From UHGV virus genome UHGV-0308106: a stretch of DNA of 55,105 nt; one strand, written 5' to 3'. How positions within the stretch are numbered: the stretch's first letter is position 1; each line of letters starts with the position of its first letter. Both the position numbers and the translations under genes were made by a program. Positions 8,674-48,911 of the stretch are shown in pieces. The notes beneath the pieces were generated by a model. The model was not told the DNA's origin. It made no database searches and saw only the letters and a list, made by a program, of their open reading frames with translations. This stretch comes from a virus.

Positions 8674-8997
8674 TTATCCCTCTCGAACCTTTAGTGATAC
8701 TCGGTTAGCAGCAAATGTGGCAATGAAACCACATTCTACACATATAACAGGGAATGCCCATATACCTCGGCCAGCTGAATGAGGTAGAGGAAGGGTAATT
8801 ATTGCAGGATAGTCTTGACTATCTTCTCGTGGAGGAACTCCCCAAAGCGTATGCTTACAAAGCGGACAGGCCATCTCGCCATGTTTTTCTTCGAGGCGTT
8901 GAAAATAATCTCGAAATTCTTGTCTTGATATTGATAGCGTCAATGCTGTTGTATTGACACTTTCCTGACTTTTTTCTTCTTCAACCTGTTCGCCCAT
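8674..8997 (-). CDS. Zinc-ribbon protein (CPLC...CVEC); first gene of the cassette
   Basis: Two CxxC pairs. ATG at 8997; the ORF track begins at an upstream TTG at 9009. Confidence 0.65.
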   Translation of the reverse strand: MGEQVEEEKSQESVNTTALTLSISRQEFRDYFQRLEEKHGEMACPLCKHTLWGVPPREDSQDYPAIITLPLPHSAGRGIWAFPVICVECGFIATFAANRVSLKVREG

Positions 8998-19875: not shown

Positions 19876-20349
19876 ATGGCTGCATTAAAACCTGATGTGA
19901 AAGCCTTCATCATTCAGTCGCTTGCGTGCTATGACACGCCGACGCAGGTGGTTGAGGCTGTCCAAAAAGAATTCGGGATCAAGATCACCCGCCAGCAGGC
20001 TGAATCTCACGACCCCACGAAGGCCAGCGGTAAGACGCTCGCCAAAAAGTGGATCGAGATGTTCCACGCTACGCGCGAACGGTTCCTGACCGAAACCAGC
20101 GACATTCCGATCGCGAACAAATCCTATCGCCTCCGCGTGCTTGACCGCATGGCAACCAAAACCGAGGGGATGAAAAACTTCTCCCTGACGGCGCAGCTGA
20201 TTGAACAGGCCGCGAAAGAGGTTGGCGACGCTTACACCAATAAGCTGAAGGTTGAAAGCACTGGCAAGGATGGCGGCCCGATCAAGACCGAGACGACCAA
20301 CCTCACCGCAGATCAGGCCGCAGAGATTTACCGCAAGATGATGGGGTGA
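19876..20349 (+). CDS. terS: Terminase small subunit (DUF2280-type), helper copy
   Basis: Lies before TerL. Has a paralog at 37662-38135. Confidence 0.75.
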   Translation: MAALKPDVKAFIIQSLACYDTPTQVVEAVQKEFGIKITRQQAESHDPTKASGKTLAKKWIEMFHATRERFLTETSDIPIANKSYRLRVLDRMATKTEGMKNFSLTAQLIEQAAKEVGDAYTNKLKVESTGKDGGPIKTETTNLTADQAAEIYRKMMG

Positions 20350-20371
20350 TAGCCGCATGTTGCGGCTATGG
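20350..20371. terminator. Hairpin between convergent terS and the HEAT gene
   Basis: TAGCCGCA-tgt-TGCGGCTA. Confidence 0.5.
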
Positions 20372-20374
20372 ATT

Positions 20375-20587
20375 CTAGGCTTGTTTTGGTCGAGTAATAC
20401 GGCCAAGAGCTTTAATTGCAGCGACTTTGACGTTGTGATTTAGATCCGAAGATAAATCAAGTAAGCGATTTACATGAGCTGGCGTTGCTGAAGCACTCTC
20501 GCCGAGAGCATAAATTGCAGACAATTTTACTTCGTTGTTAAGGTCGTTGGTTAATTCCAACAACTTAGCGCTAACTGCTGGTGTCAT
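20375..20587 (-). CDS. Mini HEAT-repeat protein (two repeats), antisense moron
   Basis: The pattern ..NNEVKLSAIYALGE.. / ..NHNVKVAAIKALGR.. occurs twice. An AGGAGG precedes the ATG at 20587. AT-rich. Confidence 0.65.
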   Translation of the reverse strand: MTPAVSAKLLELTNDLNNEVKLSAIYALGESASATPAHVNRLLDLSSDLNHNVKVAAIKALGRITRPKQA

Positions 20588-20658
20588 AAAACCTCCTGTA
20601 ATTGGTACATAAACAATATCAACTTTGTTACGCAAAAACTCAATGCCTGGAATTGTTT

Positions 20659-25627: not shown

Positions 25628-25648
25628 CTGCATATCTGTACCTTATGC
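25628..25648. repeat. Candidate attL of the satellite
   Basis: CTGCATATCTGTACCTTATGC compared with 38350-38370 TTGCATTCCTGTACCGGATGC: 16 of 21 nt match, with a shared CTGTACC core. Confidence 0.55.
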
Positions 25649-25833
25649 AACTAATATCTATTAATCAGTGCGTTATCGTTCGGAATCATACTGCGTTACT
25701 GGCCTGAACCATAAAAATGACACTCCGAACATGTGCGGATTTATTCGCCGGATTTCGCTTTGATTCGGTACGTGAGGGACTAGAGCGAGAATCATGCGCC
25801 GTTTGCATTACATGGTAGCCAGAGAGGTGTTGA

Positions 25834-27063
25834 ATGATTGTTAGGCCACTAACTAACGTCGAAGTGAAAAGCGCGAAGGCACAGGGCAAGGATTTCAGTT
25901 TGCACGATGGTTTCGGTTTGTTGCTTTACATCACAAGCCGGGGCGGTAAGTCATGGCGTTTTCGGTATGTACACCCGGTAACGAAGAAGAGACAAACCTA
26001 TACCATTGGAAGATACCCGGAGTTTACTTTGTCCGAAGCGAGGGAGGAACGTTCGAAACTGCGCCGTATGGTAGCGCGGGGGATAGATCCGAACGAAGTC
26101 AAAAAAGATACCAGGAATGAACAGCGTAAAATGTACGCGCAGTCATTTCAGGCCGTTGCCGATGAATGGCTAAAAATCAAGATTAAAGAAGGTGCGAGAA
26201 GCAACACGCTTGAATCGCACAATGTGACGTTGAAGCATCTTTCCACGATTTTTAGGCATACCACAGTACATAAAATAAACGCAGCCGATACTATTCAGGC
26301 TTTTAAACCTTTCAGGGAAAGGCCATCAACGCTTACGAAAATGGTTATTACCATCAACGCCATAATGGATTATGCGGTAAATATTGGGGTTATTGAGCAC
26401 AACCCACTATCGAAAATTGGTAAAGCATTCCCGGCTGAAAAAAACGAACCAAGAGCGACTTTACAGAAAGAGCGGTTGCCAGAATTTTTAAGCGCATGGA
26501 ACGAGTTGAGCTTATGGGAGCCATCAAAGCTGGCATTATTATTTCAGATCATTACGATGGTCCGACCTTCGGAAGCTGGCGGCGCTCTCTGGAATGAGAT
26601 TGATTTTGATAATTCAATCTGGCAAATCCCTGCAAGCCGGATGAAAGGAAAGCGCCCCCACGTAGTCCCATTATCGAGCCAGGCTATAAACGTGCTTAAA
26701 GAGGCCGAAAAGTGGAAGCGCTGCGATTATGTTTTCCCCTCATGGCGAAAAGAAAATAAGCCGATCTCACGATGTGCGACTCAGGCCGGAATACACAAAA
26801 CGTCGTTTAAAGGAATGATTGTTCCTCATGGGTTCAGGGCGTTGGCATCTACAGTTTTAAATGACGAGGGGTTCAACCCTGATGTGATTGAGGCTGCACT
26901 CGCTCACAAAAGCGCCGATGCGATTCGAAATGTTTATAACCGTAGCGACTATCTGGAAAAACGCCGGGTTTTAATGCAATGGTGGGGGGACTTTATCGAG
27001 GCCGCAGAGCGTGGAGAGATACTGGAGACCAGCGGCGATAAGGGCTTAAGGCTGGTTGTGTAG
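25834..27063 (+). CDS. int: Satellite tyrosine integrase, P4-type
   Basis: LHDGFGLLLYITSRGGKSWRFRY..., HGFRALAST, LAHKSADAIRNVY. Confidence 0.9.
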   Translation: MIVRPLTNVEVKSAKAQGKDFSLHDGFGLLLYITSRGGKSWRFRYVHPVTKKRQTYTIGRYPEFTLSEAREERSKLRRMVARGIDPNEVKKDTRNEQRKMYAQSFQAVADEWLKIKIKEGARSNTLESHNVTLKHLSTIFRHTTVHKINAADTIQAFKPFRERPSTLTKMVITINAIMDYAVNIGVIEHNPLSKIGKAFPAEKNEPRATLQKERLPEFLSAWNELSLWEPSKLALLFQIITMVRPSEAGGALWNEIDFDNSIWQIPASRMKGKRPHVVPLSSQAINVLKEAEKWKRCDYVFPSWRKENKPISRCATQAGIHKTSFKGMIVPHGFRALASTVLNDEGFNPDVIEAALAHKSADAIRNVYNRSDYLEKRRVLMQWWGDFIEAAERGEILETSGDKGLRLVV

Positions 27064-27104
27064 GGCATATCCATTTTTGGATAATTATGATTTCAAACGG
27101 GAAT

Positions 27105-27130
27105 AGCTGGCTTTAAGCCAGCTTTTTTTA
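27105..27130 (+). terminator. Rho-independent terminator after the satellite int
   Basis: AGCTGGCTT-t-AAGCCAGCT followed by a T-run. Confidence 0.8.
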
Positions 27131-27206
27131 TGCCCAAAGCTAACCGGAATGCGTTTTTTTTTATTCAAATCATATATAATCATATCGAATATATACGGAG
27201 GTTTTT

Positions 27207-27419
27207 ATGTCTATAAGTGGCGGTGATATTCTGCTAAAAGGTGAAGTGAAAGCGCGTTTACGTTATCGCTCAGACTCGTCATTCTACGAGTTTCTAAAAG
27301 ACGAGAAAAACGGCTTTCCAATGCCTTTTAAAGTCGGTGGGCGTAACTGCTGGTATGAAGATGAAGTAGATGCCTGGATAAGTAAACAAAGCGAGAAGCG
27401 CGGGATCTGCACATCATGA
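27207..27419 (+). CDS. alpA: AlpA-family regulator/excisionase-like protein
   Basis: LLKGEVKARL..FPMPFKVGGRNCWYEDEVDAWI. Confidence 0.8.
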   Translation: MSISGGDILLKGEVKARLRYRSDSSFYEFLKDEKNGFPMPFKVGGRNCWYEDEVDAWISKQSEKRGICTS

Positions 27420-27440
27420 ATGTTTGCAGATTTGGGAAAG

Positions 27441-27477
27441 AGGGCTTGCTAACGGCTATCCGGGCAAGCCCTTTTTA
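27441..27477. terminator. Bidirectional terminator
   Basis: AGGGCTTGC...GCAAGCCCT followed by TTTTT. Confidence 0.75.
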
Positions 27478-27558
27478 TTGTCAGTGGTGGGGATCTGTAA
27501 CTTACGGCCACCAGCGCCGGTAATCACCTTCTGGCTGGTGGCTTCACTGGCATGGCTA

Positions 27559-27918
27559 TTACGCTGCCGCATCATCTGAATTGAATTCAATGTGAATTCG
27601 GTCATAAGGCAGCACGATTTTTTCGCCGTCTTTGTCCAGAACGCCGCCGTTAAGCAGTGACTGAACATCGTTATAAACACCGCGAAAATCACGGTTAACA
27701 ATGCGTGATAGTTCGCGGATTGATACGGCTTGCGCTCCCTCCATCGCTTTGATGATCTGCCAGCGGTTAGGGGCAAGCATAGTTTTAGCCAGTTGTTCTA
27801 CAGTGGGAAAAATCAGTTCGGAACCGATGAAATCCCCGTTCATTGCGCGGGAGGCGTCGGACATTGCCACCCGGAAAGCATCATCAACGGTCATTACTCT
27901 GACGGTCAGCACTCGCAT
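27559..27918 (-). CDS. wHTH DNA-binding protein, putative antitoxin (TumA-like)
   Basis: ..RWQIIKAMEGAQAVSIRELSRIVNRDFRGVYNDVQSL.. GGAGG ribosome-binding site. Starts 4 nt after the upstream gene. Confidence 0.7.
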   Translation of the reverse strand: MRVLTVRVMTVDDAFRVAMSDASRAMNGDFIGSELIFPTVEQLAKTMLAPNRWQIIKAMEGAQAVSIRELSRIVNRDFRGVYNDVQSLLNGGVLDKDGEKIVLPYDRIHIEFNSDDAAA

Positions 27919-27922
27919 GGTA

Positions 27923-28204
27923 TTACCTCCTCAACAGGTTTATGTCAGCCTGAAAGCTGGCGATCAGGTTCTCAATGGTGGTGAATGTCACCGGATATTC
28001 CCGATCATGGATGTGTTTGTGGTCGCCTTTGCCACGTTCGTTGTCGTAACGCATGACGCACTCGCCATCTACGATGTAGGCCAGACTGTACTTGTATTGG
28101 TGCTGGCTACCTAAAATTGCCGGGTCTACTTCCAGAATGCGGATCGAGGCGAAAGCGTTATCAGCTATCTGGATACGGCGGTTCATCAACTCAACAGCGG
28201 GCAT
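27923..28204 (-). CDS. DUF6516/TumE-like putative toxin
   Basis: YKYSLAYIVDGECVMRYDNERGKGDHKHI motif, recognised from memory. AAGGAG ribosome-binding site. Confidence 0.6.
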   Translation of the reverse strand: MPAVELMNRRIQIADNAFASIRILEVDPAILGSQHQYKYSLAYIVDGECVMRYDNERGKGDHKHIHDREYPVTFTTIENLIASFQADINLLRR

Positions 28205-28220
28205 TGGCTTATCTCCTTGT

Positions 28221-28270
28221 TGATGTAAATAATAACATCACAAACGAATGATGTAAATGATTACATCATT
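28221..28270. promoter_or_regulatory. Two palindromic operators upstream of the TA-like operon
   Basis: TGATGTAAATAATAACATCA (28221-28240) and AATGATGTAAATGATTACATCATT (28247-28270). Confidence 0.55.
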
Positions 28271-28679
28271 GCGGGTAAGTTACCGATGGCATGAACGGTT
28301 CGCTGCTGGTGGCTCTCGATCTCCTGAAAGCTCAGGATATTGCCGGGCATGATTTTAATCGGCGGACTTTTCGGCCGATTGAATACGGGCAGTTCGCTCC
28401 CTGTGTATCGGCTTCGTTTCTGGATGATTCGCGTTTCGTTTCTGGTGAATTCGCATTCGCAATTTGTCCGCGAAGCCTTATCAGGCCTGATTTGAGCGGT
28501 GCTCTCTCTTTGCGAATTCGCAGTTCCATTTCGCACTTTGATTCGCAGTTTTCAAATGTTCCCATTCCGGGGACACGGACGATTAGACAGGTGTTACAAA
28601 CGTTGGTGGTGAAATATCTTCTTGCGCTGGCGGGCACGGTGTGGTTATGATTATTTCGCACCTCACAAAACGGGTGCCG

Positions 28680-28905
28680 GGCGTGAGAACCCGGATAAGG
28701 TCAAAGGCGACAACAGACGCCTATCGCGTCTTTTTTTTGTCGCAATGTCAGTACCCCCATATGTAGCGGCGCAGATCCGCGCACAGAATCAATGGTGGCT
28801 CTGGCAGGGCAGCTTTCGGGCTGGCCGGTTCCCTTTGACGCCGGTATTCTCACCCCTGTCAGTGTCACCACCCTTTAGAGCGTGAGAACTCAGGTGGTGG
28901 CTCCT
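28680..28905 (+). ncRNA. Candidate c4/CI-like antisense-RNA immunity region upstream of the icd-like gene
   Basis: TTCTCAC (28847-28853) and CACCACC (28866-28872) are complementary to GTGAGAA (28882-28888) and GGTGGTG (28893-28899), which lie just 5' of the icd ribosome-binding site. GCGTGAGAAC occurs twice (28681 and 28880). A terminator hairpin plus T8 lies at 28716-28738. Confidence 0.3.
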
Positions 28906-28931
28906 TAAATTAGTCAAAGGAGATCATCATC

Positions 28932-29129
28932 ATGATGACTATCCCTACCCTCGCTCAAACAAAATTCACCTGGCGCTTTCTCGCGCTGAATCGCCACGAT
29001 AAAAAAGCCAAACCTTGCCGTCTGTCCGTTGAGGCTGCGACCGAACGCGAAGCCCGCCGCATCCTTGCGCCGCACTTTATTTTGTCTCTGGCCGCACGTC
29101 TGCCAGTGCCGGAGGTGCGTCATGTTTAA
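28932..29129 (+). CDS. Icd-like cell-division inhibitor family protein
   Basis: FLALNRHDKKAKPCRLSVEAATEREARRILAPHFILSLAARLPV. AAGGAG ribosome-binding site. Confidence 0.65.
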   Translation: MMTIPTLAQTKFTWRFLALNRHDKKAKPCRLSVEAATEREARRILAPHFILSLAARLPVPEVRHV

Positions 29130-30000
29130 CCTCCAGACACTGACAGCTAAAGCCCGTGAGCTGCGCGGCAACGTCGTTAAAGCGGCGAGCACAAAGGGAA
29201 GTCGCACCATGACTCCTGTCTATGACCGTGACGAGCAGCGCAAGCTACGCGAGCGCATCCAGCAGACACAGCCCGATTGGGTGTTGCTCTGGTGGGATAT
29301 TGCGACCGTAACCGGCTGGCGTACCAGCGACGTTTGCAACCTGCGCTATTCCTGCGTCAATTGGGAAACGGGGCAGGCGACAATTATCGTTGCCAAGCAG
29401 ACCAAAGCCGCCGAAGCGCGGGCAACCCGCAAAGGTATTGAAATTGTGCGCCAGCAGCGCAAGGACGCCGCGCGGCTCGCCGCTGACCATATCGCCTACA
29501 TGAAGTGGGATAGTATCGGTTGTGACGAACTGGCCGCCGATATGAACGACGAGGAACAGGCGATTGTGTTCGGGCTGGTGGCAAAGGCTGACGTCAAGCA
29601 CGACACCAAACAGTTACCGCCCGGCATTATCAAGCGGCTGCGTGACCGTCAGGATCGGAATCTGGTGGAGGACGACCTGGTATTTTCACGCTCTCAAATC
29701 GAAAGTAACCGTTGTCAACGTCTGGAAGGTAGCGTTACTCGCCAAACCATCTGGCGCAAACTTCATGGCGTCATGGCGTGGTTTACCCGTTTCATTAACG
29801 CTAAATTGCGCCTGAGCGCGTACTCAAGCCGAAAAATAGCAGCCTTTAATCTTATGTCCGCAGGTGGCGAACAGGGATTATTGGTGGCTTCTGAAATGCT
29901 GGGGCATAGCAACCCGGCGATAACTCGCACTTACCTTCAATTAGGCAGCAAAGCCGCCGCTATCCAGTCCCGTTTAGCAATGGAGGTGTGCCATGCGTAA
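29122..30000 (+). CDS. Tyrosine-recombinase-fold protein (atypical)
   Basis: TGWRTSD (R), YSSRK in place of HxxR, and LGHSNPAITRTYLQ (H..Y). GGAGGTG ribosome-binding site. Confidence 0.6.
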   Translation: MFNLQTLTAKARELRGNVVKAASTKGSRTMTPVYDRDEQRKLRERIQQTQPDWVLLWWDIATVTGWRTSDVCNLRYSCVNWETGQATIIVAKQTKAAEARATRKGIEIVRQQRKDAARLAADHIAYMKWDSIGCDELAADMNDEEQAIVFGLVAKADVKHDTKQLPPGIIKRLRDRQDRNLVEDDLVFSRSQIESNRCQRLEGSVTRQTIWRKLHGVMAWFTRFINAKLRLSAYSSRKIAAFNLMSAGGEQGLLVASEMLGHSNPAITRTYLQLGSKAAAIQSRLAMEVCHA

Positions 30001-30172
30001 TCTCTTTCATATCACTGGCTACGCCGTCAATAAACGCGGCCTGACAGTCGGTTTTAGCTATCTCATCGACGCCGAGGACGCCATGCAGGCAAAAGTTAAT
30101 GCCATTGCTGAGGCGAAAGACGATGAACTCACCCACGTATCTATTGCCCGTATTCTGGAGGTGGCAGCATGA
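29993..30172 (+). CDS. Hypothetical 59-aa protein
   Basis: Hand-translated, beginning MRNLFHITGYAVNKRG. GGAGG ribosome-binding site. ATGA overlap with the next gene. Confidence 0.55.
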   Translation: MRNLFHITGYAVNKRGLTVGFSYLIDAEDAMQAKVNAIAEAKDDELTHVSIARILEVAA

Positions 30173-30381
30173 GCAAAGTATCCCTGGCCGATTCAACCTG
30201 CCGTATCCAACAGGCGCAGGAAGTCCTGTCTCTCTGGCTTGAGGCGACGAATAAAAACGATAGCGGCACGGCTAAATTAATCGGCGCAATCATTTCCCTT
30301 CTGGATGGTATCCCCGAATTGATGGATTCAGTAGAGGATGAATTGGCTGGCATGGACTTAAAAGCGATGGATAAAGCATGA
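30169..30381 (+). CDS. Hypothetical 70-aa protein
   Basis: Translationally coupled ORF. Confidence 0.6.
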   Translation: MSKVSLADSTCRIQQAQEVLSLWLEATNKNDSGTAKLIGAIISLLDGIPELMDSVEDELAGMDLKAMDKA

Positions 30382-31004
30382 GCAACGTAGAGAAATTCAC
30401 ACCGGGAAATGCCGACTTATTACACGCCGAAGCCACACCGCACGGCGTAAACATCATGACCCGCAATGATGCCGGGATGTATGAGCATGTAGCCATTATC
30501 ACCTATGAGAGCGCTGTAAGCCGTCTGGATGCGGGAGAGTACGACGATACGCCAGATATCGGCTACGCCATTCATTTTGCCGTTGCTGATGGCGGGGCGC
30601 GTGGCTGGTTCGACTTTACCGCGCAGCATGAAGTAACCATGTGGCGCTGGCTGATTGCTGCGACGTTCGTTTCTGAGATGAAGCGCGAAAACGGCACAAC
30701 CTCCGTCACGGAGGCTGACGGCACAACATCGCAGGTGGCGATTTACTCCAATGGTAATGCGGGCATGGTGATTTACCCGTTTGCTGAACGGCTGGCGATG
30801 GCGAACAACATCGAGGGCGCAATGATTGAGCGATACGGCGTCGAACAGGGTACGGAAAAAGCCATTGTGTTTTATCAGGCCATGCTGGATACGGAGCGCG
30901 GCGAGCTTACCCCGTTCGGACGTGAAACGCTGGCAGAGCTACACGATCACTTCATTGCTGATCTGGATGAAAACGGCTGGCCTGAAATGCCAGCGGCGCA
31001 CTGA
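30378..31004 (+). CDS. Hypothetical 208-aa protein
   Basis: Coupled ORF upstream of the primase gene. Confidence 0.65.
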   Translation: MSNVEKFTPGNADLLHAEATPHGVNIMTRNDAGMYEHVAIITYESAVSRLDAGEYDDTPDIGYAIHFAVADGGARGWFDFTAQHEVTMWRWLIAATFVSEMKRENGTTSVTEADGTTSQVAIYSNGNAGMVIYPFAERLAMANNIEGAMIERYGVEQGTEKAIVFYQAMLDTERGELTPFGRETLAELHDHFIADLDENGWPEMPAAH

Positions 31005-31016
31005 GGGAGCGACACA

Positions 31017-33797
31017 ATGCGTAATATCGACCTTATCCGCGAAGTGACCAGCGCCGCAGCAGGGCGCTGGCCTTATGTGCTGGCTGGGTTGTCTATCGAC
31101 GTGCCTGATTCATCGCGCCGCCATTCTCCATGCCCTGCATGTGGTGGAAAAGACCGTTTCAGATTCGACGACAACGGGCGCGGTAGCTTTATCTGCAACC
31201 AGTGTGGCGCTGGTGACGGGCTGGATTTAATCAAGCGGGTTAACAACTGCGACACTACGGAGGCGGCACAGCTTGCCGCTGACGTGCTGGGTATTGATTA
31301 CCGGGCAGCGCAATCCGACCCGGTGGCAGCGAGCCATATAAGGGAGCAACTGGAAGCTGACCGCCAGCAGCGTGAGCAGGAGCGCCAGAAACAGGCAGCA
31401 GGGGACGCAGAGCAGCGAAGGGCTACGTTTGCCCGTCTGTATGCCGGAATGCGCCAGAGTGCCACACAGGGCGAATCTGATTACCTGCAATCAAAAGGGC
31501 TGACCGGGTTTAACTATCCGGTTATGCCTGATGGTTCGTTATTGCTGGAGCTGGTGGACGAATCCGGCGCAGTGGCAGCAGCGCAAACCATTACACCGCA
31601 GGGAGAGAAGCGACTCCTGACAGGTTCAGCAAAGCGCGGGGCATATCACGCCGTAAACGCGCCAGAATCGCCGCAGAGCGTTTTAATTGCCGAGGGGCTG
31701 GCGACGGCCCTTTCAGTTCACCTGATGCGCCCGGACGCGCTGGCAGTGGCAGCAATTGACGCGGGCAACCTGCTACCCGTTGCCGAAGTGATGCGCCGGA
31801 AGTACCCACAGGCACAAATCATCATTGCCGCAGATAACGACCAGATGGGCGAAAGTGACGGAATTAAAGGAGTGAAAGTTAACACTGGCAAGGAGGCCGC
31901 AGAGAAAGCCGCGAAAGCCGTTTCTGGCTGGGTTTCCATGCCACCAGTGGACTATAAAGCGGACTGGAACGACTACCACCAGCAATACGGCCTCGAAGCG
32001 GCCACAGCAGCATTTAACGACTCAATGTATCAACCGGAGGGTAAGAAAGTGGGTGCGACACTGACAGCTATCGACGGCGGCAAGAAAAAACTTGGTATCG
32101 ACGACGATCTGAAACCGCGAGTAGAGAGCCGTGCGGATGGCATTCACTGGATCACCCCGAAAGTGGACAAAGACACAGGAGAAATTATCAATACCGAGGC
32201 GTGGCTATGCTCTCCGCTGGAGATTGCTGGTGCGGGGAGTGATAACGCCAGACAGCGCTTTCTGATCCTGCGTTGGGACGTCCCCGGCAACCGGGGGCAA
32301 GTTACCCGTGCGCTTCCATGGGAGGACATTGGCGACCGTGAGGGATGGCGCACGCTGAAAAACGGCGGTGTCAGTGTGACAACCAAACCATCGTTGCGGG
32401 CAATTCTGGCCGACTGGCTGCAGCGAACTGGTAGCGGCAAGGAATGGCAGATCAGCCACACCACAGGCTGGCACAACGGGGCGTACATCATGCCGGATGG
32501 TGATGTTATTGGTGAGCCAGAGATACCGCTGTTATTCAGTGGTCGGAGTGCGGCGGCTGGTGGCTATACCGTCAGTGGAACGCCGGAAAGCTGGCGTGAT
32601 TCGGTGGCGCGTCTTGCGCTGGGAAACCCGTCAATGATGCTGGGCGTTGCTGCTGCGCTTTCTGCGCCGCTGATCGGGCTTGTTGGCGCTGACGGGTTCG
32701 GCGTGCATCTTTTCGAGCAGTCCAGCGCAGGGAAGACAACCACCGCCAACATTGCCAGCAGTTTATACGGTGAACCGGATGCCTTGCGCCTTACCTGGTA
32801 CGGTACAGCGCTGGGTATCGCCAACGAAGCGGAAGCGCATAACGACAGCCTGTTACCGCTGGATGAAGTGGGGCAGGGCAGTAGCGCCAAAGACGTTGCT
32901 ACGTCTGCTTACACGCTGTTTAACGGTGCCGGAAAGCTACAGGGGGCCAAGGAGGGCGGCAACCGTGAGTTAAAGCGCTGGCGCACCGTGGCGATCAGTA
33001 CCGGGGAAATGGACATTGAGACGTTTCTTTCTGCTGGTGGGCTGAAAGTTAAGGCCGGGCAACTGGTGCGATTGCTTAATTTACCGATGGAGAAATCAGT
33101 AACGCACCATGAGTACCAGAACGGGAAGCAACACGCCGACGCACTCAAAGAGGCTTACCAGACGAACCACGGAGCCGCAGGCCGTGAATGGATTAAATGG
33201 CTTGCAGGCCACCAGCAGGAGGCAAAACAAGCTGTCAGGGCGGCGCAAGAGCGCTGGCGCAGTCTTATCCCCGCTGATTATGGCGAACAGGTTCATCGTG
33301 TCGGTGAGCGGTTCGCCATTCTGGAGGCGGCGCTGGTGCTGGGGATGCCTGTCACTGGTTGGGGGGAGCAGGAAAGTCGGGACGCTATCCAGCATGGCTT
33401 TAATGCTTGGGTAAAAGAGTTTGGCACGGGGAACCGTGAGCATAAGCAGATCATCGAGCAGGCAGAGGCGTTTCTTAATGCCTACGGCATGAGCCGTTTC
33501 GCGCCGTTCCCGTATAGCCCGGCTGACATGCCGATCCGGGATTTAGCCGGATACCGTCAGAAAGGTGAGCATGACGAAAGCCCCGTAGTGTTCTACACCT
33601 TTCCGGCTGCGTTCGAAAAGGAGATAGCGCAGGGCTTTAATGCGAAACAGTTTGCCCGTGTGCTGGCCGGGGCTGGGGTACTGAAACCGCCAGCCAGCGG
33701 AAGGGGATATCAGCGTAAATCCCCGCGAATTGATGGACGCCAGATAAACGTTTATGTGCTCCAGCTACGACCCGACGAGATAGAGGGCGAAGAATAA
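31017..33797 (+). CDS. Primase-helicase (P4 alpha-like): zinc ribbon, Toprim and P-loop helicase
   Basis: CPACGGKDRFRFDD..CNQCG; LIAEGLATALS..AADND; Walker A SSAGKTT. Confidence 0.9.
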   Translation: MRNIDLIREVTSAAAGRWPYVLAGLSIDVPDSSRRHSPCPACGGKDRFRFDDNGRGSFICNQCGAGDGLDLIKRVNNCDTTEAAQLAADVLGIDYRAAQSDPVAASHIREQLEADRQQREQERQKQAAGDAEQRRATFARLYAGMRQSATQGESDYLQSKGLTGFNYPVMPDGSLLLELVDESGAVAAAQTITPQGEKRLLTGSAKRGAYHAVNAPESPQSVLIAEGLATALSVHLMRPDALAVAAIDAGNLLPVAEVMRRKYPQAQIIIAADNDQMGESDGIKGVKVNTGKEAAEKAAKAVSGWVSMPPVDYKADWNDYHQQYGLEAATAAFNDSMYQPEGKKVGATLTAIDGGKKKLGIDDDLKPRVESRADGIHWITPKVDKDTGEIINTEAWLCSPLEIAGAGSDNARQRFLILRWDVPGNRGQVTRALPWEDIGDREGWRTLKNGGVSVTTKPSLRAILADWLQRTGSGKEWQISHTTGWHNGAYIMPDGDVIGEPEIPLLFSGRSAAAGGYTVSGTPESWRDSVARLALGNPSMMLGVAAALSAPLIGLVGADGFGVHLFEQSSAGKTTTANIASSLYGEPDALRLTWYGTALGIANEAEAHNDSLLPLDEVGQGSSAKDVATSAYTLFNGAGKLQGAKEGGNRELKRWRTVAISTGEMDIETFLSAGGLKVKAGQLVRLLNLPMEKSVTHHEYQNGKQHADALKEAYQTNHGAAGREWIKWLAGHQQEAKQAVRAAQERWRSLIPADYGEQVHRVGERFAILEAALVLGMPVTGWGEQESRDAIQHGFNAWVKEFGTGNREHKQIIEQAEAFLNAYGMSRFAPFPYSPADMPIRDLAGYRQKGEHDESPVVFYTFPAAFEKEIAQGFNAKQFARVLAGAGVLKPPASGRGYQRKSPRIDGRQINVYVLQLRPDEIEGEE

Positions 33798-33821
33798 AAC
33801 ACACATACGAGATGTTTTTTT

Positions 33822-34114
33822 GTTGGTTCAGTTGGTTCAGTAACTATTTAATTAAGATAAGTATATGTATTTAATATATTTCTATACCCATAAGTGAACC
33901 AACACTGAACCAACAAATACCCATTTTGAACCAACAAATGCCGCTATTGAACCAACGCCCTTTTCTGGCTGGCCTGTAAATCTTTCCCACTGAACCAACA
34001 CGAAAATAGCGTTTGTTGGTTCAAAACAAGGCTTTGTTGGTTCACTCCTCAAGAAATAATCCTTACAAAACAACAATCTTTACAAATTGAACCAACTGAA
34101 CCAACTGAACCAAC
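33822..34114. repeat. Satellite replication origin: 12 copies of TGAACCAAC plus an AT-rich tract
   Basis: Forward copies at 33895, 33906, 33927, 33948, 33991, 34088, 34097 and 34106. Inverted copies at 33822, 33831, 34015 and 34036. AT-rich tract at 33841-33890. Confidence 0.8.
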
Positions 34115-34221
34115 ATGTTTTTGTTTATCTATAGAGTTTTTTCGGAGAGTAATTACGAATTTGGAGGGGCATCGCCTAAGCGACAGTATGCGGAAACGGC
34201 AACTTTGCGGAGCGGAAAAGA

Positions 34222-34252
34222 AAAAGCCCGCGCTGGAGAGGCGAGGGCTTTT
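34222..34252 (+). terminator. Rho-independent terminator
   Basis: AAAGCCC...GGGCTTT followed by a T-rich tail. Confidence 0.6.
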
Positions 34253-34397
34253 GTTAACCATGTTTATGCAATCACACAATGGTGGATCACCGTCATAGTA
34301 CCACGTCGATTTATCATTTCAATGTACGCAATGATGTTTACTAATATTGCAATTTATGCAATGATCAGAATTTAAACAACGCAAAAGGTTATGAACA

Positions 34398-34961
34398 ATG
34401 AAACAGATAACCAATGTTAATCTGGAAAGTGATAACGCTGGTGGTACAGTCGAGGTGACTTACTCCGATGATACGTTCGAAAGGCTGACCTGTTCGCTGC
34501 CTGTGGCTCTCGTCATTGCGAACCTTGCAACGACGCTTAAGCAGGAACGTGCAACACGCATTGCAACCGGCGACCGCCTGCGCCGGATGTATACCCGCGA
34601 TAGTGACATGATTACCCGCAGCGGCAGCGGCGCTTCTACGACCTCCACCGCGCCAACGTCAATGGACGCTGAATTTATGCGCCTGGTACGCGCTGTAGCA
34701 CCAAAGTATGACAACGCCCTTCCTGATACCGATCCTCGCCTTGTTGCGCTTGATGTGCTGCGTTACGCACCCGCTGAGGCATTCAGTGCGGTACACCCGA
34801 CCCCGCTATCAGAGATTCAGCTTGATCAGGCTATCGACGTTCTGGAACAGGTTGGCGACTACATGCGAGTTAACAACGTTTCACCGAAGATTCTCACCAC
34901 AGGCGACGCCATTCGCAGCATTAACACCGACAACGCCAGTTTCTGGCATCGCACGAAGTAA
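34398..34961 (+). CDS. Satellite protein ending in a helper-scaffold-like tail (candidate alternative scaffold / capsid-size redirector)
   Basis: The C-terminus TTGDAIRSINTDNASFWHRTK parallels the helper scaffold TTGDAQRP..SLNKQNADFWSNRKG. Confidence 0.7.
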   Translation: MKQITNVNLESDNAGGTVEVTYSDDTFERLTCSLPVALVIANLATTLKQERATRIATGDRLRRMYTRDSDMITRSGSGASTTSTAPTSMDAEFMRLVRAVAPKYDNALPDTDPRLVALDVLRYAPAEAFSAVHPTPLSEIQLDQAIDVLEQVGDYMRVNNVSPKILTTGDAIRSINTDNASFWHRTK

Positions 34962-34973
34962 GGAGCAATGAGC

Positions 34974-35162
34974 ATGGCTATTTATGACCCGAAATTAGCA
35001 GCAGGAAACCCGCAAAGCGCCGGGCGTAAACTCTTTGGCCGTGAACAGGCCGAGCAATTGCGGATGCGTAACAACTTCAACAACGAATGCCGCAATCTGG
35101 AAAAAGTCAACGAAGCGAATGCAAAGTTCTGGAGTGAACAGGATGAAAAAGCCAAACGTTAA
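34974..35162 (+). CDS. Small protein carrying a second scaffold-tail-like motif
   Basis: ..LEKVNEANAKFWSEQDEKAKR. An AAGGAG lies 9 nt before the ATG at 34974. Confidence 0.55.
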   Translation: MAIYDPKLAAGNPQSAGRKLFGREQAEQLRMRNNFNNECRNLEKVNEANAKFWSEQDEKAKR

Positions 35163-35310
35163 GCCGGTATTACTCTCTGGCGACCAGTTCGCCGCAATCT
35201 GCAAGATCCAGGAGCGCGAACGCCAGCGCTCCGATATTGGCGTAGCGCCGTCTGTCCATCAAATTGCCCGTGGGCTGGTGGCGAAAGCGCTGGCATCAAT
35301 TCAGGAATAA
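35143..35310 (+). CDS. Hypothetical 55-aa protein, possibly a small DNA-binding protein
   Basis: MKKPNVKPVLLSGDQFAAICKIQERER..SVHQIARGLVAKAL. The RHH-like reading is speculative. Confidence 0.45.
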   Translation: MKKPNVKPVLLSGDQFAAICKIQERERQRSDIGVAPSVHQIARGLVAKALASIQE

Positions 35311-35315
35311 CGACT

Positions 35316-36383
35316 ATGTCATATAACTGGATGCGCCATTTCGAGCTACAGCTCATCGATGAGAATGGCAAAGGAATTAGCCTTAGTGATTTCAAAGTTA
35401 CCTTTGATATAGAGCGTAACGATAACAAATGGCCAGCTGTTGCGACGGTCAAGATCTACAACCTTTCACCAACTACTCAGAACCGTATTATGCAACGTGA
35501 GTTTGCCAAAATTGTGTTGATAGCGGGGTATGATGGTCGTGCGCAGGATGTAAGGGCAAGTGATGTGGGGATTGCACGTGAAATATCAGCAAGCGAAGTG
35601 GGCCAGGCTAACGGCGCAAACTACGGAGTCATTTTCAGCGGTGATATCCGCTTCACTGTGACCGGAAAAGATAACCCTGTCGATTCATGGGTACAGGTGC
35701 AGGCTTGTGACTCTGTGGAGGCGTTTACCAGCGCATTTATCAACACCACTATCAGCAAAGGCTACACCACAGAAGATATTTATGTTGAGCTTATGAAAAG
35801 GCTGGAACCTTACGGCATTTCTCGCGGTATTGTTCCTGAATTCCCGGCAACGGTATTTCCTCGCGGTCGAGCCCTCTTTGGCTATGTCCATAACTATCTC
35901 GATGAAGTGGCCGCGCAGTGCAAAGCCACTTGGCAATTCAACTATGGAAAAGTCGATATTGTTCCCAGAGACAAGGCCACTCATGAAGCTGTGGTTCTCA
36001 ACGCTAATACCGGGCTTATCGGTATGCCTCAGCAGACCATCGGTGCGGGTGTGAATGTCAAATGCCTGATTAACTCACGGATTCACCTGAACGGGCTTAT
36101 CCAACTGGATCAGGCTTCGGTATATCGTAGCGCCTTATCTGCGGATCAAATTGCCCAAGCTGGTGGGCCAATTTCGGTGGAAAGCCAAAACGGAAACCTT
36201 GTCACTACTGGATTAACGCAGAGTCCGGCGAGCATTGCTACCGATGGTATCTATAAGGTTCGGTATATCAGTTACACGGGCGACACGCGCGGTCAAGCGT
36301 GGTATATGGATCTGGCGTGTGAGGCTCGCGGGAATTCTGATTTATTTTCAAGTTCATTTATGAATAAGCAGAGTGAAGAATGA
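35316..36383 (+). CDS. Baseplate hub protein, satellite paralog of 47472-48536
   Basis: Colinear over its full length with the helper protein (MSYNWMRHFELQL.. against MSLNWMRHFELQL..). Roughly 60% identical by eye. Confidence 0.8.
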   Translation: MSYNWMRHFELQLIDENGKGISLSDFKVTFDIERNDNKWPAVATVKIYNLSPTTQNRIMQREFAKIVLIAGYDGRAQDVRASDVGIAREISASEVGQANGANYGVIFSGDIRFTVTGKDNPVDSWVQVQACDSVEAFTSAFINTTISKGYTTEDIYVELMKRLEPYGISRGIVPEFPATVFPRGRALFGYVHNYLDEVAAQCKATWQFNYGKVDIVPRDKATHEAVVLNANTGLIGMPQQTIGAGVNVKCLINSRIHLNGLIQLDQASVYRSALSADQIAQAGGPISVESQNGNLVTTGLTQSPASIATDGIYKVRYISYTGDTRGQAWYMDLACEARGNSDLFSSSFMNKQSEE

Positions 36384-36724
36384 AGAAGATTATTTTACTG
36401 ATTGGTTTATTGGGCGCATCTGGAAGTCATGCTGCGCAGGTTATTACCATGCAGTGCGGAAACTTTCGCTTTGAGATGATAGAAAACTCGATGGCGAGAA
36501 TTAATGGTGAGTATGTAACATCTCAGAAAATTACAGAGTTCGGACAGAACGGGGCAAAAGTAGAAATGACGCTTATGCCTGCCAGCGATGGGAATCTGTA
36601 TGGGTTTGAATACATCCATCCTGACGGTAGCAAAAAGCGCTGGCTGAATGTTGAGCTTATCCGCACCAATATGAATCAGGCGCGGATCATTGGCTCGTTT
36701 GATTGTAAGCGCGTGAAGGGGTAA
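36380..36724 (+). CDS. Secreted small protein, satellite paralog of 48549-48893
   Basis: Signal peptide ending SHA/AQ. Conserved QCGxF near the mature N-terminus and DC(K/R)(R/K)VK at the C-terminus. Confidence 0.7.
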   Translation: MKKIILLIGLLGASGSHAAQVITMQCGNFRFEMIENSMARINGEYVTSQKITEFGQNGAKVEMTLMPASDGNLYGFEYIHPDGSKKRWLNVELIRTNMNQARIIGSFDCKRVKG

Positions 36725-36732
36725 GGGGAATC

Positions 36733-37395
36733 ATGCCATTCATTCGACCCGCAAATGAGCAGGATGTAACACAGCTTGTTCAGGACAATGCTAAAGCATC
36801 TGTAACCAATGCGTTACCTGGCATTATTCGTTCGTTCGATCCCGAAACTGTCACCTGCGATGTTGATATAGCCATTACGGCAAGAATGACGAAGGCTGGC
36901 ACAATGGGTGAAGATTTCCAGTATGAGTCCGTCCGCTATCCGATTCTTAACGATTTGCCTGTGGTTTTTCCGCGCGGGGGCGGAGTTACGCTTACTTTCC
37001 CGGTTAAAGATGGTGATGAATGCCTCATCGTATTCTCTTCGCGTTCGATTGATTTCTGGTGGCAGAACGGCGGTGTGCAGGAGCGAGCTGATGGGCGTAT
37101 TTTAGATCTGTCTGATGCGTTCGTTATTCCTGGCCCCCAATCACAGGTAAAGAAGATATCCAATATCAGTACCAACGCTGCGCAGCTGCGTACAGATGAT
37201 GGAGCGGCATTTGTAGAGGTGTCCGCTGGTGGAGCCATTACTATTACCAGCTCTCAAATCACCCTTAACGGGCCCGTGCAGGTAAACGGAACGATCACTT
37301 CCACTGGCGACCAAACGGCCAACGGTATCAGCCAGATTAACCATACCCACGGCGGCGTACAATCAGGCGGCAGCAACACAGGAAAACCACAATGA
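36733..37395 (+). CDS. Central tail spike (Gp138-N / gpV-like), satellite paralog of 49430-50170
   Basis: PGIIRSFDPETVTC..FPRGGG.TLTFPVK.GDECL..DFWWQ.GGVQ, and an apex reading HTHGGVQSGG. Confidence 0.8.
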   Translation: MPFIRPANEQDVTQLVQDNAKASVTNALPGIIRSFDPETVTCDVDIAITARMTKAGTMGEDFQYESVRYPILNDLPVVFPRGGGVTLTFPVKDGDECLIVFSSRSIDFWWQNGGVQERADGRILDLSDAFVIPGPQSQVKKISNISTNAAQLRTDDGAAFVEVSAGGAITITSSQITLNGPVQVNGTITSTGDQTANGISQINHTHGGVQSGGSNTGKPQ

Positions 37396-37571
37396 GCAAT
37401 ATTGAAAAACTGAAACCAGAAGAAAGCGGATCCAGCCAGAATGGTAAGGTTCGTACCTGGCTGGATGATATCAACGGGCAGCCGGAACCAGATGGTATTG
37501 GCAGCTTCGGTGAGAGTGCGATCTGCGAAGAATCACGCACAGCGGAAACCATGCGAAATAACGTAGGGTGA
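37392..37571 (+). CDS. Hypothetical acidic 59-aa protein
   Basis: Hand-translated, beginning MSNIEKLKPEESGSSQNGKV. ATGA overlap with the spike stop. Confidence 0.45.
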   Translation: MSNIEKLKPEESGSSQNGKVRTWLDDINGQPEPDGIGSFGESAICEESRTAETMRNNVG

Positions 37572-37598
37572 CGGTCAGATGACGTGATCTGTAACTTT

Positions 37599-37640
37599 AA
37601 GTAGCGGTGCAGGGGCAGAACTCAGCACGCTACTTTTATT
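37599..37640 (+). terminator. Hairpin plus T-rich tail before the satellite terS
   Basis: AAGTAGCG...CGCTACTT followed by TTATTTT. Confidence 0.5.
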
Positions 37641-37661
37641 TTCTTTGTCAAAAGGTGAACA

Positions 37662-38135
37662 ATGGCGGCATTACCAACAATGGCTAAGGTTATGATTATT
37701 CAATCATTAGCTTGCTACGAACCCCCTTCCAGAATCGTTGAGCTTGTAAAACAAGATTTTGGCATCGTCGTTACCCGGCAGCAGATATCGGCCTACAACC
37801 CTGAAAATACAATGGCAAAAAATCTTAGCCAAAAATGGGTAGAACTCTTTAATCACACTCGCGCCCGCTTCCAGAGTGAAATATCCGAGATCCCTATCGC
37901 TAACAAAGCGTACCGGCTGCGTATGCTCGATCGCATGGCTAACCGTGCAGAGGCAATCAAGAATTACGCATTAACAGCGCAGCTTATTGAACAGGCCGCG
38001 AAAGAGTGCGGGGACGCTTACACCAACAAATTAAAGGTTGAAACAACGGGTAAAGATGGTGGTCCGATCAGAACGGAAACAACGAACTTAACCGCCGAAG
38101 AAGCCGGGGAGGCATACCGCAAATTTATGGGATAA
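37662..38135 (+). CDS. terS: Terminase small subunit (DUF2280-type), satellite paralog
   Basis: Same length (157 aa) as the helper TerS. The C-terminal half is close to identical (LTAQLIEQAAKE.GDAYTNKLKVE.TGKDGGPI.TETTNLTA) and the N-terminal part is diverged. Confidence 0.8.
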   Translation: MAALPTMAKVMIIQSLACYEPPSRIVELVKQDFGIVVTRQQISAYNPENTMAKNLSQKWVELFNHTRARFQSEISEIPIANKAYRLRMLDRMANRAEAIKNYALTAQLIEQAAKECGDAYTNKLKVETTGKDGGPIRTETTNLTAEEAGEAYRKFMG

Positions 38136-38349
38136 CCACCAGCGCCGTGACACGTCACACGCAAAAATAGCACCGCCCATTAATGGGCTGGTGGCACAGC
38201 TTGCATATTGAAATTCCCTGTAAATCTTACAGATCTGGTATTGAGTAACTTACCCCATTCAGCGCCATACATCACAGAGCAGCCTATGGACTACACACAA
38301 AATCAGGCTGCAAATAAATCCTTATATTTCAGTTGATTAAATAATAGCC

Positions 38350-38370
38350 TTGCATTCCTGTACCGGATGC
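38350..38370. repeat. Candidate attR of the satellite
   Basis: Partner of 25628-25648. It overlaps the resumed reading frame of the cement gene. Confidence 0.55.
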
Positions 38371-47471: not shown

Positions 47472-48536
47472 ATGTCTCTTAACTGGATGCGCCATTTTGA
47501 GTTGCAGCTGTTGGACCAGAACGGGCAGGGTATTTCCCTGTCTGATTTTAAGGTCACGTTCCAGATCGAGTGGGCAGATACACGCTGGCCGCGCGTGGCA
47601 AACGTGAAAATTTACAACCTTTCGACCGATACCACGAACAAGATACTGGGGCAGGAGTTTGCAAAAATTCGCATCATTGCCGGGTATGACGGTATTGCGC
47701 CGGATGTTGATGCGAGCCAGGTTGGTGTCGCCCGGGAGATTTCACCAGACCAGGTAGGGCAGGTGAACGGTCAGAACTACGGCCTGATATTTGACGGTGA
47801 TATTCGCTTCACCGTCACCGGGAAGGACAACATCACCGATTCCTGGGTGCTGATTCAGGCCATCAGTAACCACGAAGCGTTCCTCTACGCGACTACCATC
47901 ACCACGCTTGCCGCTGGCTATACCGTTGCGGATCTGCACCGGGCGACGATGCAGGATTTCAACGCGTTCGGCGTGACACAGGGCATTACCGGCGATTTTC
48001 CTGATACCGTGTTTCCTCGTGGCCGCGCGATTTACTCATCCAGCCGCAACGTGATGGATAATATTGCTGCGCAGTGCAAAGCGACATGGCAACTGGTGGA
48101 TGGTCAGGTCCAGATGGTGCCGGAGGATAAATATATTCACGAAGCCATTGTGTTGAATGCCAATACTGGCCTGATCGGTATGCCGCAACAAACGATGGGC
48201 GGCGGAGTAAACGTGCGGTGCCTGATAAACCCAAACATCCGTATTAATGGTCTTATCCAGCTCGATCAGGCTTCGGTGTACCGCGCCACGCTCGGCAATA
48301 GCGAAATAGCACAGTCGCCCGGGCGTATCACCGAAACAGAAGAGAACGGCAACCGTGTGCTGACCGGCACGACGTCACAGGCTGCCAGCATTGCGACGGA
48401 TGGCGTTTATATCGTCAAAGCTATCGACTATACTGGCGACACCAGAGGTCAGGCGTGGTACATGGATTTGATGTGTTTTGCGCGTGGCGCTCGTGATCTT
48501 TATAGCCCGAAAGCAATGCAAGGGACGACGAATTAG
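47472..48536 (+). CDS. Baseplate hub protein, helper copy
   Basis: Paralog of 35316-36383. Confidence 0.8.
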   Translation: MSLNWMRHFELQLLDQNGQGISLSDFKVTFQIEWADTRWPRVANVKIYNLSTDTTNKILGQEFAKIRIIAGYDGIAPDVDASQVGVAREISPDQVGQVNGQNYGLIFDGDIRFTVTGKDNITDSWVLIQAISNHEAFLYATTITTLAAGYTVADLHRATMQDFNAFGVTQGITGDFPDTVFPRGRAIYSSSRNVMDNIAAQCKATWQLVDGQVQMVPEDKYIHEAIVLNANTGLIGMPQQTMGGGVNVRCLINPNIRINGLIQLDQASVYRATLGNSEIAQSPGRITETEENGNRVLTGTTSQAASIATDGVYIVKAIDYTGDTRGQAWYMDLMCFARGARDLYSPKAMQGTTN

Positions 48537-48548
48537 TGAGGTGGGGCC

Positions 48549-48893
48549 GTGAGACATTTACTTTGCACTGTTACCGTGTTCGCGGTGCTTATATCAGCAC
48601 CCGCTTTTGCGGATCAGCAATGTGGTGATTTTAAAATCCATTGGGCAGATGATGGCTTAGCCAGAATCAATGGCGCAAAGCCAGAAATGCAAAAAATCAC
48701 CTTCCTGAAAAACAAAGGCGATTATAACAATATCAAGATGGATTGGCGTATGGCTACCGATCAGCCTGGAAGATGGGTTGGTCTTGAGTACATCAATCGA
48801 AACGGCAAAGCCATTCTCAACGCACAGTGGTTGCAAGCCAGCATGGATTCGCCGCGTCAGTATGCAACATACGACTGCCGAAAAGTAAAATAG
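48549..48893 (+). CDS. Secreted small protein, helper copy (GTG start)
   Basis: Signal peptide ending AFA/DQ. Conserved Cys pair. GAGGTGG ribosome-binding site. Confidence 0.7.
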   Translation: MRHLLCTVTVFAVLISAPAFADQQCGDFKIHWADDGLARINGAKPEMQKITFLKNKGDYNNIKMDWRMATDQPGRWVGLEYINRNGKAILNAQWLQASMDSPRQYATYDCRKVK

Positions 48894-48911
48894 CCCGCCA
48901 GATAGGCGGGC
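48893..48911. terminator. Hairpin terminator shared by convergent genes
   Basis: GCCCGCC-agata-GGCGGGC. The tail on the minus strand is T-rich. Confidence 0.6.

Follow-up and report, generated by a model that had tools for sequence, protein, structure and literature searches.

Does the ~700-bp gap at positions 28205-28931 of the virus genome UHGV-0308106, directly in front of an Icd-like open reading frame (ORF), hold an antisense RNA immunity switch of the kind known from phages P1 (c4) and P4 (CI), as an earlier note on this DNA had proposed? We analysed the whole stretch of 55,105 nucleotides (nt), here called the window, and conclude, with a probability of roughly 85% for the whole mechanistic reading, that the region is a complete P4-type IsrK-C4 (seqA-CI-seqC) RNA immunity module. 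The covariance-model scan that the note had proposed as a check for the C4/CI families was clearly positive (78.8 bits against a gathering score of 45), and at the gathering threshold Rfam gave exactly two matches in the window, C4 and isrK, which are adjacent and both on the plus strand. The two RNAs and the ORF behind them are as follows.

28658-28736, plus strand: isrK / P4 seqA-type leader RNA (Rfam RF01394, 61.3 bits against a gathering score of 50, model positions 1-77 of 77)
28788-28875, plus strand: C4 / CI antisense RNA (Rfam RF01695, E = 8e-14, model positions 1-87 of 87)
28932-29129, plus strand: Icd-like / P4 Kil-like ORF of 65 amino acids (aa) (NCBIfam NF033153, 79.5 bits against a curated cut-off of 25), the first gene of an operon that runs to a primase (31017-33797)

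The C4 RNA folds into a closing stem and two hairpins with a single non-canonical pair in the window, and scored 103.9 bits with a covariance model of our own built from the window, P4 and D6, from which P1 c4 was left out because its inclusion in the MAFFT alignment disrupted the structure. Minus-strand matches of this model at 23-24 bits were dropped as mirror images of the palindromic structure. Aligned to P1 c4, whose ends are annotated, it has a predicted mature form of 79 nt at ~28794-28872. The end of the C4 match lies 57 nt from the Icd-like ORF on the same strand, and the two are presumably co-transcribed. The Icd-like protein was 44-46% identical to its P4 and D6 homologs and 33% identical to P1 Icd; a tblastn search with it matched P4 at 8180-8365 (the kil position, 45%), N15 cA and PY54 icd, as well as phiKO2, and no Pfam family matched it.

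Upstream of C4, the leader RNA is laid out as hairpin 1 (28658-28677), hairpin 2 (28677-28694), a single-stranded linker and an intrinsic terminator, which corresponds to the hairpin plus T8 already noticed in the earlier note, was found independently of the isrK model and sits at the position of P4 t1. The isrK match begins at the predicted transcription start (~28658), and the promoter in front of it is proposed from its position and from comparison with P4 and D6, where −10-like hexamers (TATAGT and TATATT, respectively) keep the same distance to the leader hairpin.

28622-28651, plus strand: putative constitutive promoter, equivalent to P4 PLE (−35 TTGCGC at 28622-28627, 18-nt spacer, −10 TATGAT at 28646-28651)
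28715-28738, plus strand: Rho-independent terminator of the short leader RNA (stem AGACGC/GCGTCT at 28715-28731 and T8 at 28731-28738), inside the isrK match

The isrK RNA accompanied C4 in 16 of 18 related loci tested. The leader is described better by isrK than by the c4-a1b1 family (RF03163, gathering score 46.7), though the a1 and b1 sequences are present.

These targets, and the C4 elements that they complement, form two sets of contacts, one on either side of C4.

28847-28853, plus strand: a′ TTCTCAC, in the single-stranded junction after C4 hairpin 2, the same as P4 a′
28832-28839, plus strand: b′ CCTTTGAC, a P1-type b′ in the loop of C4 hairpin 2, at the position of P1 b′ TCACTAAC
28683-28689, plus strand: a1 GTGAGAA, the complement of a′, shown in the loop of leader hairpin 2
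28700-28707, plus strand: b1 GTCAAAGG, the complement of the b′ loop, in the leader linker (duplex −15.2 kcal/mol)
28882-28888, plus strand: a2 GTGAGAA, 7 nt past the C4 match and equivalent to the curated P1 a2 (duplex −9.2 kcal/mol)
28913-28920, plus strand: b2 GTCAAAGG, overlapping the Shine-Dalgarno sequence (SD) AAGGAG at 28917-28922 (duplex −13.4 kcal/mol)

All five complementary elements were intact in the window. The start of b1 lies 17 nt downstream of the start of a1, and no tandem of a and b targets besides these two was found in the whole 55-kb window, surrounding prophage included. The motif positions of the earlier note were correct (TTCTCAC at 28847, CACCACC at 28866, GTGAGAA at 28882 and also at 28683, GGTGGTG at 28893 and also at 28605, AAGGAG at 28917), and the target repeat that it had located upstream at 28681, GCGTGAGAAC, stands there and at 28880, its only two copies in the window. 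Its assignment of two heptamer pairs to the a and b contacts has to be divided: TTCTCAC/GTGAGAA is the true a′/a2, whereas CACCACC/GGTGGTG is not b′/b2, CACCACC being part of the closing stem. The note had also placed both of its targets just 5′ of the ribosome-binding site, which neither GTGAGAA nor GGTGGTG touches; b2, which it had missed, does.

Are these complementarities more than chance? Through alignment of Icd-like proteins we collected 80 related loci from viral contigs, in 61 of which our covariance model located a C4 RNA ~55 nt upstream of icd; together with the window, P4, D6 and P1, these 61 loci comprise 36 unique sequences. As a cross-locus control, elements were tested against the flanks of loci carrying a different element. 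The a′ element had a perfect 7-nt complement on both sides in all 36 unique loci (100%, against about 5% cross-locus), one lying 2-8 nt after the RNA and the other 82-160 nt upstream. Similarly, b′ had a complement of 7-9 nt in 35 of 36 loci (97%, against 2-5% cross-locus); the downstream one was located at +31 to +38 with its end inside the SD, the upstream one ~16 nt after a1 (35/36), with b1 present at a length of at least 7 nt in 97% of the unique loci against 4.7% cross-locus. Target sequences in the set were of 9 kinds for a and 14 for b, and these occurred in 23 a/b combinations.

Pairing was then scored on an alignment of 31 sequences, with shuffles and partners slid by 1-3 columns as controls. 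Cells of the a and b contacts were paired in 97.6% of cases, compared with 84.1% after shuffling, and the observed score was reached in none of 500 shuffles; sliding the partner lowered the paired fraction to 34-48%, and the leftover unpaired cells are explained by three rows whose register is shifted by one column. Compensatory change was observed in 6 of the 7 a pairs and 6 of the 9 b pairs, and within C4 itself the three helices were paired in 95.5-99.8% of cells, with compensatory change in 13 of 27 pairs. The complementarity is far beyond chance, and the covariation shows that each contact is under selection. With the Rfam C4 and isrK matches, the trio of RNA matches that P4 also carries and the NF033153 assignment of the ORF, the covariation bears out the earlier proposal of a P1 c4/P4 CI-style switch in front of the Icd-like gene.

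The heptamer pair that had been taken for b′/b2 forms a contact of a different kind.

28866-28872, plus strand: c′ CACCACC, which makes up the 3′ side of the C4 closing stem and runs on for two bases into the tail, pairing with 28793-28799 in the Rfam structure
28893-28906, plus strand: c2 GGTGGTG (28893-28899) and the anti-SD CTCCTT (28901-28906), the 5′ arm of a hairpin that hides the SD and the first AUG

The c′ element was complementary to c2 downstream of its own RNA in 94% of loci against 11% cross-locus, with 95.3% of cells paired (23-64% when slid) and compensatory change in 6 of 9 pairs. The second GGTGGTG, at 28605, was considered as an upstream c1 and rejected as chance (6% own against 13% cross-locus); it is absent from the near-identical locus L004 and present in L009 despite a different c′. 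In the predicted fold of 28876-28960, c2 and CTCCTT lie in a long hairpin opposite AAGGAG and the start region AUCAUCAUCAUG, and c2 paired with the segment from b2 to the AUG with a probability of 0.97 in the window and 0.51 over 26 distinct leaders, compared with 0.19 in shuffles. The translation start of the Icd-like ORF is thus predicted to be closed by default. We advance only tentatively, and as an idea that is more probably wrong, that c′/c2 is a third, functionally selected contact outside the P1 a/b model. The 3′ trailer of the C4 precursor would then compete with the acceptor-like stem, so that the pairing could gate maturation, or else the pairing could help C4 to pry the leader hairpin open, letting b′ reach b2. 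P4 CI is reported to need 3′ trimming before RNase P cleavage, which would fit such a maturation gate. The contact may already lie within the original P4 definition of seqB/seqC, of which our literature search gave no open description, and the covarying c′/c2 with its tie to the SD-burying hairpin is the only mildly new thread at this locus.

How would the module work? In P4, a leader transcript made constitutively is processed to give CI, whose pairing with seqA and seqC results in premature termination (PMC4825925, PMC10111431), and in P4-like prophages IsrK corresponds to seqA and C4 to CI (PMC3632133). RNAs of the C4 family are stable products of about 70-80 nt, processed from longer transcripts with RNase P acting at the 5′ end, which repress the genes behind them and confer immunity. 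The isrK RNA binds Hfq and accumulates as a short species, the mRNA arising by read-through (PMC4825925). In the window, the analysis shows the sequence elements, the family membership, the synteny and the covariation of all contacts; from the homologs we infer the processing, termination, translational block and decoy action in the following scheme. Transcription of the leader would start at ~28658 from the promoter at ~28622-28651, and most transcripts would end at the leader terminator at 28738. Transcripts that read through would contain C4, from which a stable RNA of ~79 nt would be cut out at ~28794-28872, exposing single-stranded b′ in the hairpin-2 loop and a′ in the junction for pairing with a1/b1 and a2/b2. 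On nascent a1/b1, C4 would strengthen leader termination, providing autoregulation and a first barrier, as in P4. On a2/b2, it would cover the SD of the Icd-like ORF, as in P1, whose record annotates the a2/b2 contacts as repressing icd-ant translation; the read-through RNA would remain untranslated and be terminated before the primase operon. The short leader RNA, which carries a1/b1, may also act as a decoy for C4, as shown for Salmonella IsrK; such titration would agree with IsrK being an activator in trans.

Several observations weigh against this scheme. The leader promoter is weak by consensus and was missed by a strict sigma-70 consensus scan. The c4-a1b1 family remained below threshold, with 18.0 bits at 28645-28697 over the first two isrK hairpins. 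The SD was paired with a mean predicted probability of 0.99 over the 26 leaders even without C4, and because it is already buried, the added value of b′/b2 pairing for translational repression is in doubt. The steps modelled on P4 t1, t4 and timm draw on secondary summaries. Finally, no eta-like ORF was found across the leader/C4 region, where an in-frame TAG stands at 28911-28913, and the AlpA-like gene is parted from the module by an opposite-strand TumE/HVO_A0114 toxin-antitoxin pair. In P4, derepression proceeds through eta, translated from a late promoter (PMC10111431); with no eta-like ORF and no adjacent alpA-like gene, this route does not apply as such.

The predicted closed translation initiation region fits a system that needs activation, which brings in the logic of Salmonella Gifsy-1, where IsrK activates a silent read-through transcript in trans and a processed RNA, STnc1160, lies downstream (PMC4825925). 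Applied to the window, whose leader belongs to the isrK family, the leader RNA (28658-28738) would be the main trans-acting activator and C4 mainly a cis element or target: the leader would pair with the C4 part of the read-through transcript and refold it, switching on translation of the downstream ORF. That this logic dominates is possible, though we doubt it, since the closest sequence homolog is P4, whose CI is described as the immunity factor (PMC3632133, PMC10111431), and since C4 covaries no less tightly with a2/b2 than with a1/b1, a feature for which activation alone has no need. Both models could hold at once. The position of b2 on the SD, as in P1, and the 8-nt overlap of the Icd-like ORF with the next one (29122 against 29129), compatible with coupling, could instead mean that C4 only blocks Icd-like translation at a2/b2, with polarity, a1/b1 and the terminator just serving to make the precursor. 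We consider this unlikely, because a1/b1 are conserved and covarying in every locus, the terminator follows a1/b1 directly, as in P4, and the SD is sequestered even without C4.

Might the module be a non-functional relic, or its complementarity accidental, in a decaying island? Its exact allele is absent from species-representative genomes, in which the exact 47-nt pattern from a′ to a2 did not occur. Full-length, high-scoring covariance-model matches with one non-canonical pair, the intact complementary elements, near-identical copies of the module in several IMG/VR contigs and a covariation that shows selection on pairing make such decay very improbable. Less probable still is that the gap encodes a protein repressor and that the RNA features are incidental. 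ORFs of 87-119 aa do exist in 28205-28931, P4 cI was once annotated as a protein, and old P4 records and PHROGs label the region and its Icd-like ORF "transcriptional repressor". However, the 87-aa ORF merely crosses the structured RNAs, none of the ORFs had an NCBIfam match, and the Prokaryotic Genome Annotation Pipeline (PGAP) called no gene over the matched parts of the spacer (~28205-28596) in two Escherichia coli genomes (H3 and H5). Compared with the 95%-identical locus L009, the 119-aa ORF carries a frame-breaking 1-nt indel at 28529, with substitutions distributed 9:8:3 over codon positions 1:2:3, a non-coding pattern. On these grounds coding potential was rejected, and the earlier statement that the gap has no credible ORF holds as far as it can be tested. 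We therefore retain the P4-type IsrK-C4 module as the preferred reading.

The collected loci also reveal how the module varies. Loci L007-L009 (~1170-1500) are natural mosaics or specificity swaps that combine a window-like leader 5′ end and a 95-97% identical Icd with a full P1/P7-like set of a, b and c elements, which indicates recombinational exchange of the whole specificity cassette (a1/b1, C4, a2/c2/b2) between related islands. In the P4-like locus L067 (1362-1507), the b′ loop TATCCTATGACG matches only 4 nt at b2 and 5 nt at b1, with a and c intact; this locus may be an immunity-altered or escape variant. Neither C4 nor isrK was found in 19 loci (L010-L027 and L031, ~1170-1500), and Rfam at the gathering score gave nothing in the two of them tested. 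Their Icd-like proteins are 74-94% (17 loci, L010-L026), 70% (L027) and 54% (L031) identical to that of the window. Instead, these loci have a gene transcribed divergently and a TTGACA promoter surrounded by operator-like repeats, and a single short hairpin (GAAGCCCGGCAGTG...CTAACCGGGC CTCTGACCACC) is conserved right 5′ of icd; the same icd gene is controlled there by different means.

What carries the module? It belongs to a 12.7-kb island at ~25649-38350, in which an integrase, the AlpA-like gene, the toxin-antitoxin pair, the RNA module, the Icd-like ORF, a tyrosine-recombinase-like ORF with small ORFs and a Zn-ribbon/Toprim/DUF927 primase are followed by paralogs of baseplate hub, spike and DUF2280 (TerS-like) genes. 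The island interrupts a capsid-cement gene (PF22758) of an SEN34/Omnitron-like myovirus prophage within its first codons. The site has the head protease/scaffold gene on one side and the major head gene on the other, and the island is oriented like the late operon around it. Both junctions (25629-25648 and 38351-38370) carry the imperfect direct repeat TGCAT(AT/TC)CTGTACC, 14 bp long, no tRNA gene marks the attachment site, and the identical junction was found in 8 IMG/VR contigs. Citrobacter phage Omnitron and Salmonella phage SEN34 both have the flanks as one contiguous sequence, at 97-99% and 88-90% identity, respectively. The only pointer to the host is the flank match, 98.7%, to a Citrobacter braakii phage, which would suggest a host of this kind.

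The earlier note had called the element a satellite, which is reasonable for a 12.7-kb int/alpA/primase island without capsid genes; it is not, however, a P4-like satellite sensu stricto, defined by the core psu, delta, sid, epsilon, alpA, integrase and alpha. Of this core the island has an integrase (31% identical to that of P4), a protein weakly like AlpA (20.5 bits, with the cut-off at 21; 38% identity over 48 aa to P4 ORF88) and a primase whose relationship to alpha is confined to the N-terminal third, and no match to Psu, Sid or Delta was obtained among the island ORFs tested. By gene layout and site, the island matches the published architecture of helper-embedded phage-inducible chromosomal islands (HE-PICIs), described by Tommasini, Mageeney and Williams 2023 (PMC10111431): it lies co-oriented inside a late gene of a helper prophage, flanked by an attachment-site identity block, and is divided into four zones, of which the first has int/alpA, the second, a dynamic one, the immunity RNAs C4 and isrK, the third the primase and the last the captured late genes. 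Both GN-PICIs and HE-PICIs are matched by the Rfam profiles of C4 and isrK (PMC10111431). The published set targets lambda late-gene cognates, whereas the helper here is an SEN34/Omnitron-like myovirus and the site its capsid-cement gene.

At the right end of the island, genes at 35316-37395 and 37662-38135 are diverged paralogs of genes of the surrounding prophage at 47472-50170 and 19876-20349, with aa identities of 62% for the baseplate hub, 53% for the spike and 64% for the DUF2280/TerS-like protein. An assembly artefact was rejected as the source of the duplication, since the copies are only 53-64% identical. They look like captured helper late genes, and the TerS-like copy could redirect packaging. 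In the prophage itself, the TerS-like gene is separated from the large terminase by 308 bp (20351-20658) that phage Omnitron lacks; by eye, the minus strand of this segment appears to offer a ribosome-binding site and a short ORF (~70 codons), in the manner of a moron.

Closer to the module, a 292-aa tyrosine-recombinase-like ORF (29122-30000; Phage_integrase, E = 1e-10) starts 8 nt before the stop of the Icd-like ORF and occupies the place that ant has in P1; its E. coli relatives are labelled "integrase" or adjoin an "ash family protein". Upstream of the leader promoter, the spacer holds an iteron-like 22-nt tandem at 28413-28456 (TTCGTTTCTGGATGATTCGCGT / TTCGTTTCTGGTGAATTCGCAT) and three copies of ATTCGCA(A/G)TT at 28455-28464, 28516-28525 and 28541-28550. 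The spacer with these repeats is common only to L009 (95%), and the repeats could be an origin or a regulator-binding array. At 28221-28268, two 20-nt near-palindromes (TGATGTAAATAATAACATCA and TGATGTAAATGATTACATCA) over a minus-strand promoter-like site lie directly upstream of the TumE-toxin / HVO_A0114 gene pair (27559-28204, minus strand) and are probably the operator of this toxin-antitoxin module.

What does the locus add? The system is textbook knowledge for P1 and P4, has two Rfam families and is published in P4-like prophages and helper-embedded satellites, so that a standard Rfam scan would annotate the module and it matters little as a discovery. The locus can now be annotated with confidence, including the leader RNA, the C4 RNA, five target/effector elements and the Icd-like ORF. 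The 9 a and 14 b sequences in their 23 combinations form a natural covariation series, in which immunity specificity is modular and reassorts between satellites. Sharing a and not b with P4, the allele of the window could serve to ask which contact sets specificity, and the standard model could be extended, in ways that are cheap to test, by the covarying c′/c2 and by a translation start that is always closed.

Among known systems, the cA region of N15, phiKO2 and PY54, which are linear plasmid prophages, resembles the window in having a C4-type RNA directly before an Icd-like ORF; the likeness is limited to C4 and icd, the leader remaining unaligned by blastn. Gifsy-1 IsrK-STnc1160/orf45-anrP resembles the window in its isrK-family leader, in read-through of the terminator into a transcript that stays untranslated and in a processed RNA further downstream (PMC4825925), and the predicted closed translation start in the window fits the Salmonella read-through isrK transcripts, which are transcribed but untranslated (PMC4825925). 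In Gifsy-1, however, the downstream products are an anti-repressor and, indirectly, an antiterminator, rather than an Icd-like protein and replication genes, and in the published model IsrK activates and the downstream RNA is not treated as a C4 repressor (PMC4825925).

The P1-like phage-plasmids RCS47, JL22 and D6 align with the window from the leader through C4 into icd at 73-76% identity. The P1 record has curated coordinates for a1, b1, c4, a2, b2 and icd, in the order a1-b1-c4-a2-b2-icd found in the window. As in the window, P1 b′ lies in the c4 hairpin-2 loop, a′ (CTGTCAA) in the junction after hairpin 2, a2 shortly after the RNA (by 3 nt in P1) and b2 over the icd SD, with a1/b1 repeated upstream. 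By contrast with immI of P1/P7, where c4 is followed by icd and ant, the window has no ant gene, carrying the tyrosine-recombinase-like ORF instead, and shows no evident counterpart of the C1 operator in the P1 promoters. The P1 leader is without an isrK-type match in the form seen in the window, and the P1/P7-like leaders of L007 and L009 miss the isrK gathering score. The c′/c2 complement of P1 is weak, with a longest exact run of 5 nt.

P4 is the closest relative, with 79.7% identity over the aligning part (39% of a 491-nt query, in two pieces). The two differ in b (GUCAAAGG in the window, UUCACAGG in P4) and in c (GGUGGUG and GGCGAUAGC, respectively), so specificity is probably shared only in part. 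They also differ in setting, as the window element sits in a prophage gene rather than a tRNA gene, its integrase is only distantly similar and its alpA-like gene is not adjacent. The window primase is 35% identical to P4 alpha in its N-terminal part, and its helicase part, DUF927, is unlike that of P4. The P4 region runs from PLE through seqA/t1, the CI RNA, seqC and kil/eta to the alpha primase. Otherwise the P4 immunity region carries the three Rfam matches in identical order, with C4 (CI) at 8420-8507, isrK (the seqA leader with its terminator) at 8615-8692 (60.8 bits) and c4-a1b1 at 8653-8705 (44.1 bits, likewise slightly under gathering). It shares with the window an identical a element (a′ UUCUCAC; a1/a2 GUGAGAA), the c′/c2 complementarity, a Kil/Icd-like first ORF (45% identical) and an operon that ends in a Zn-ribbon/Toprim primase.

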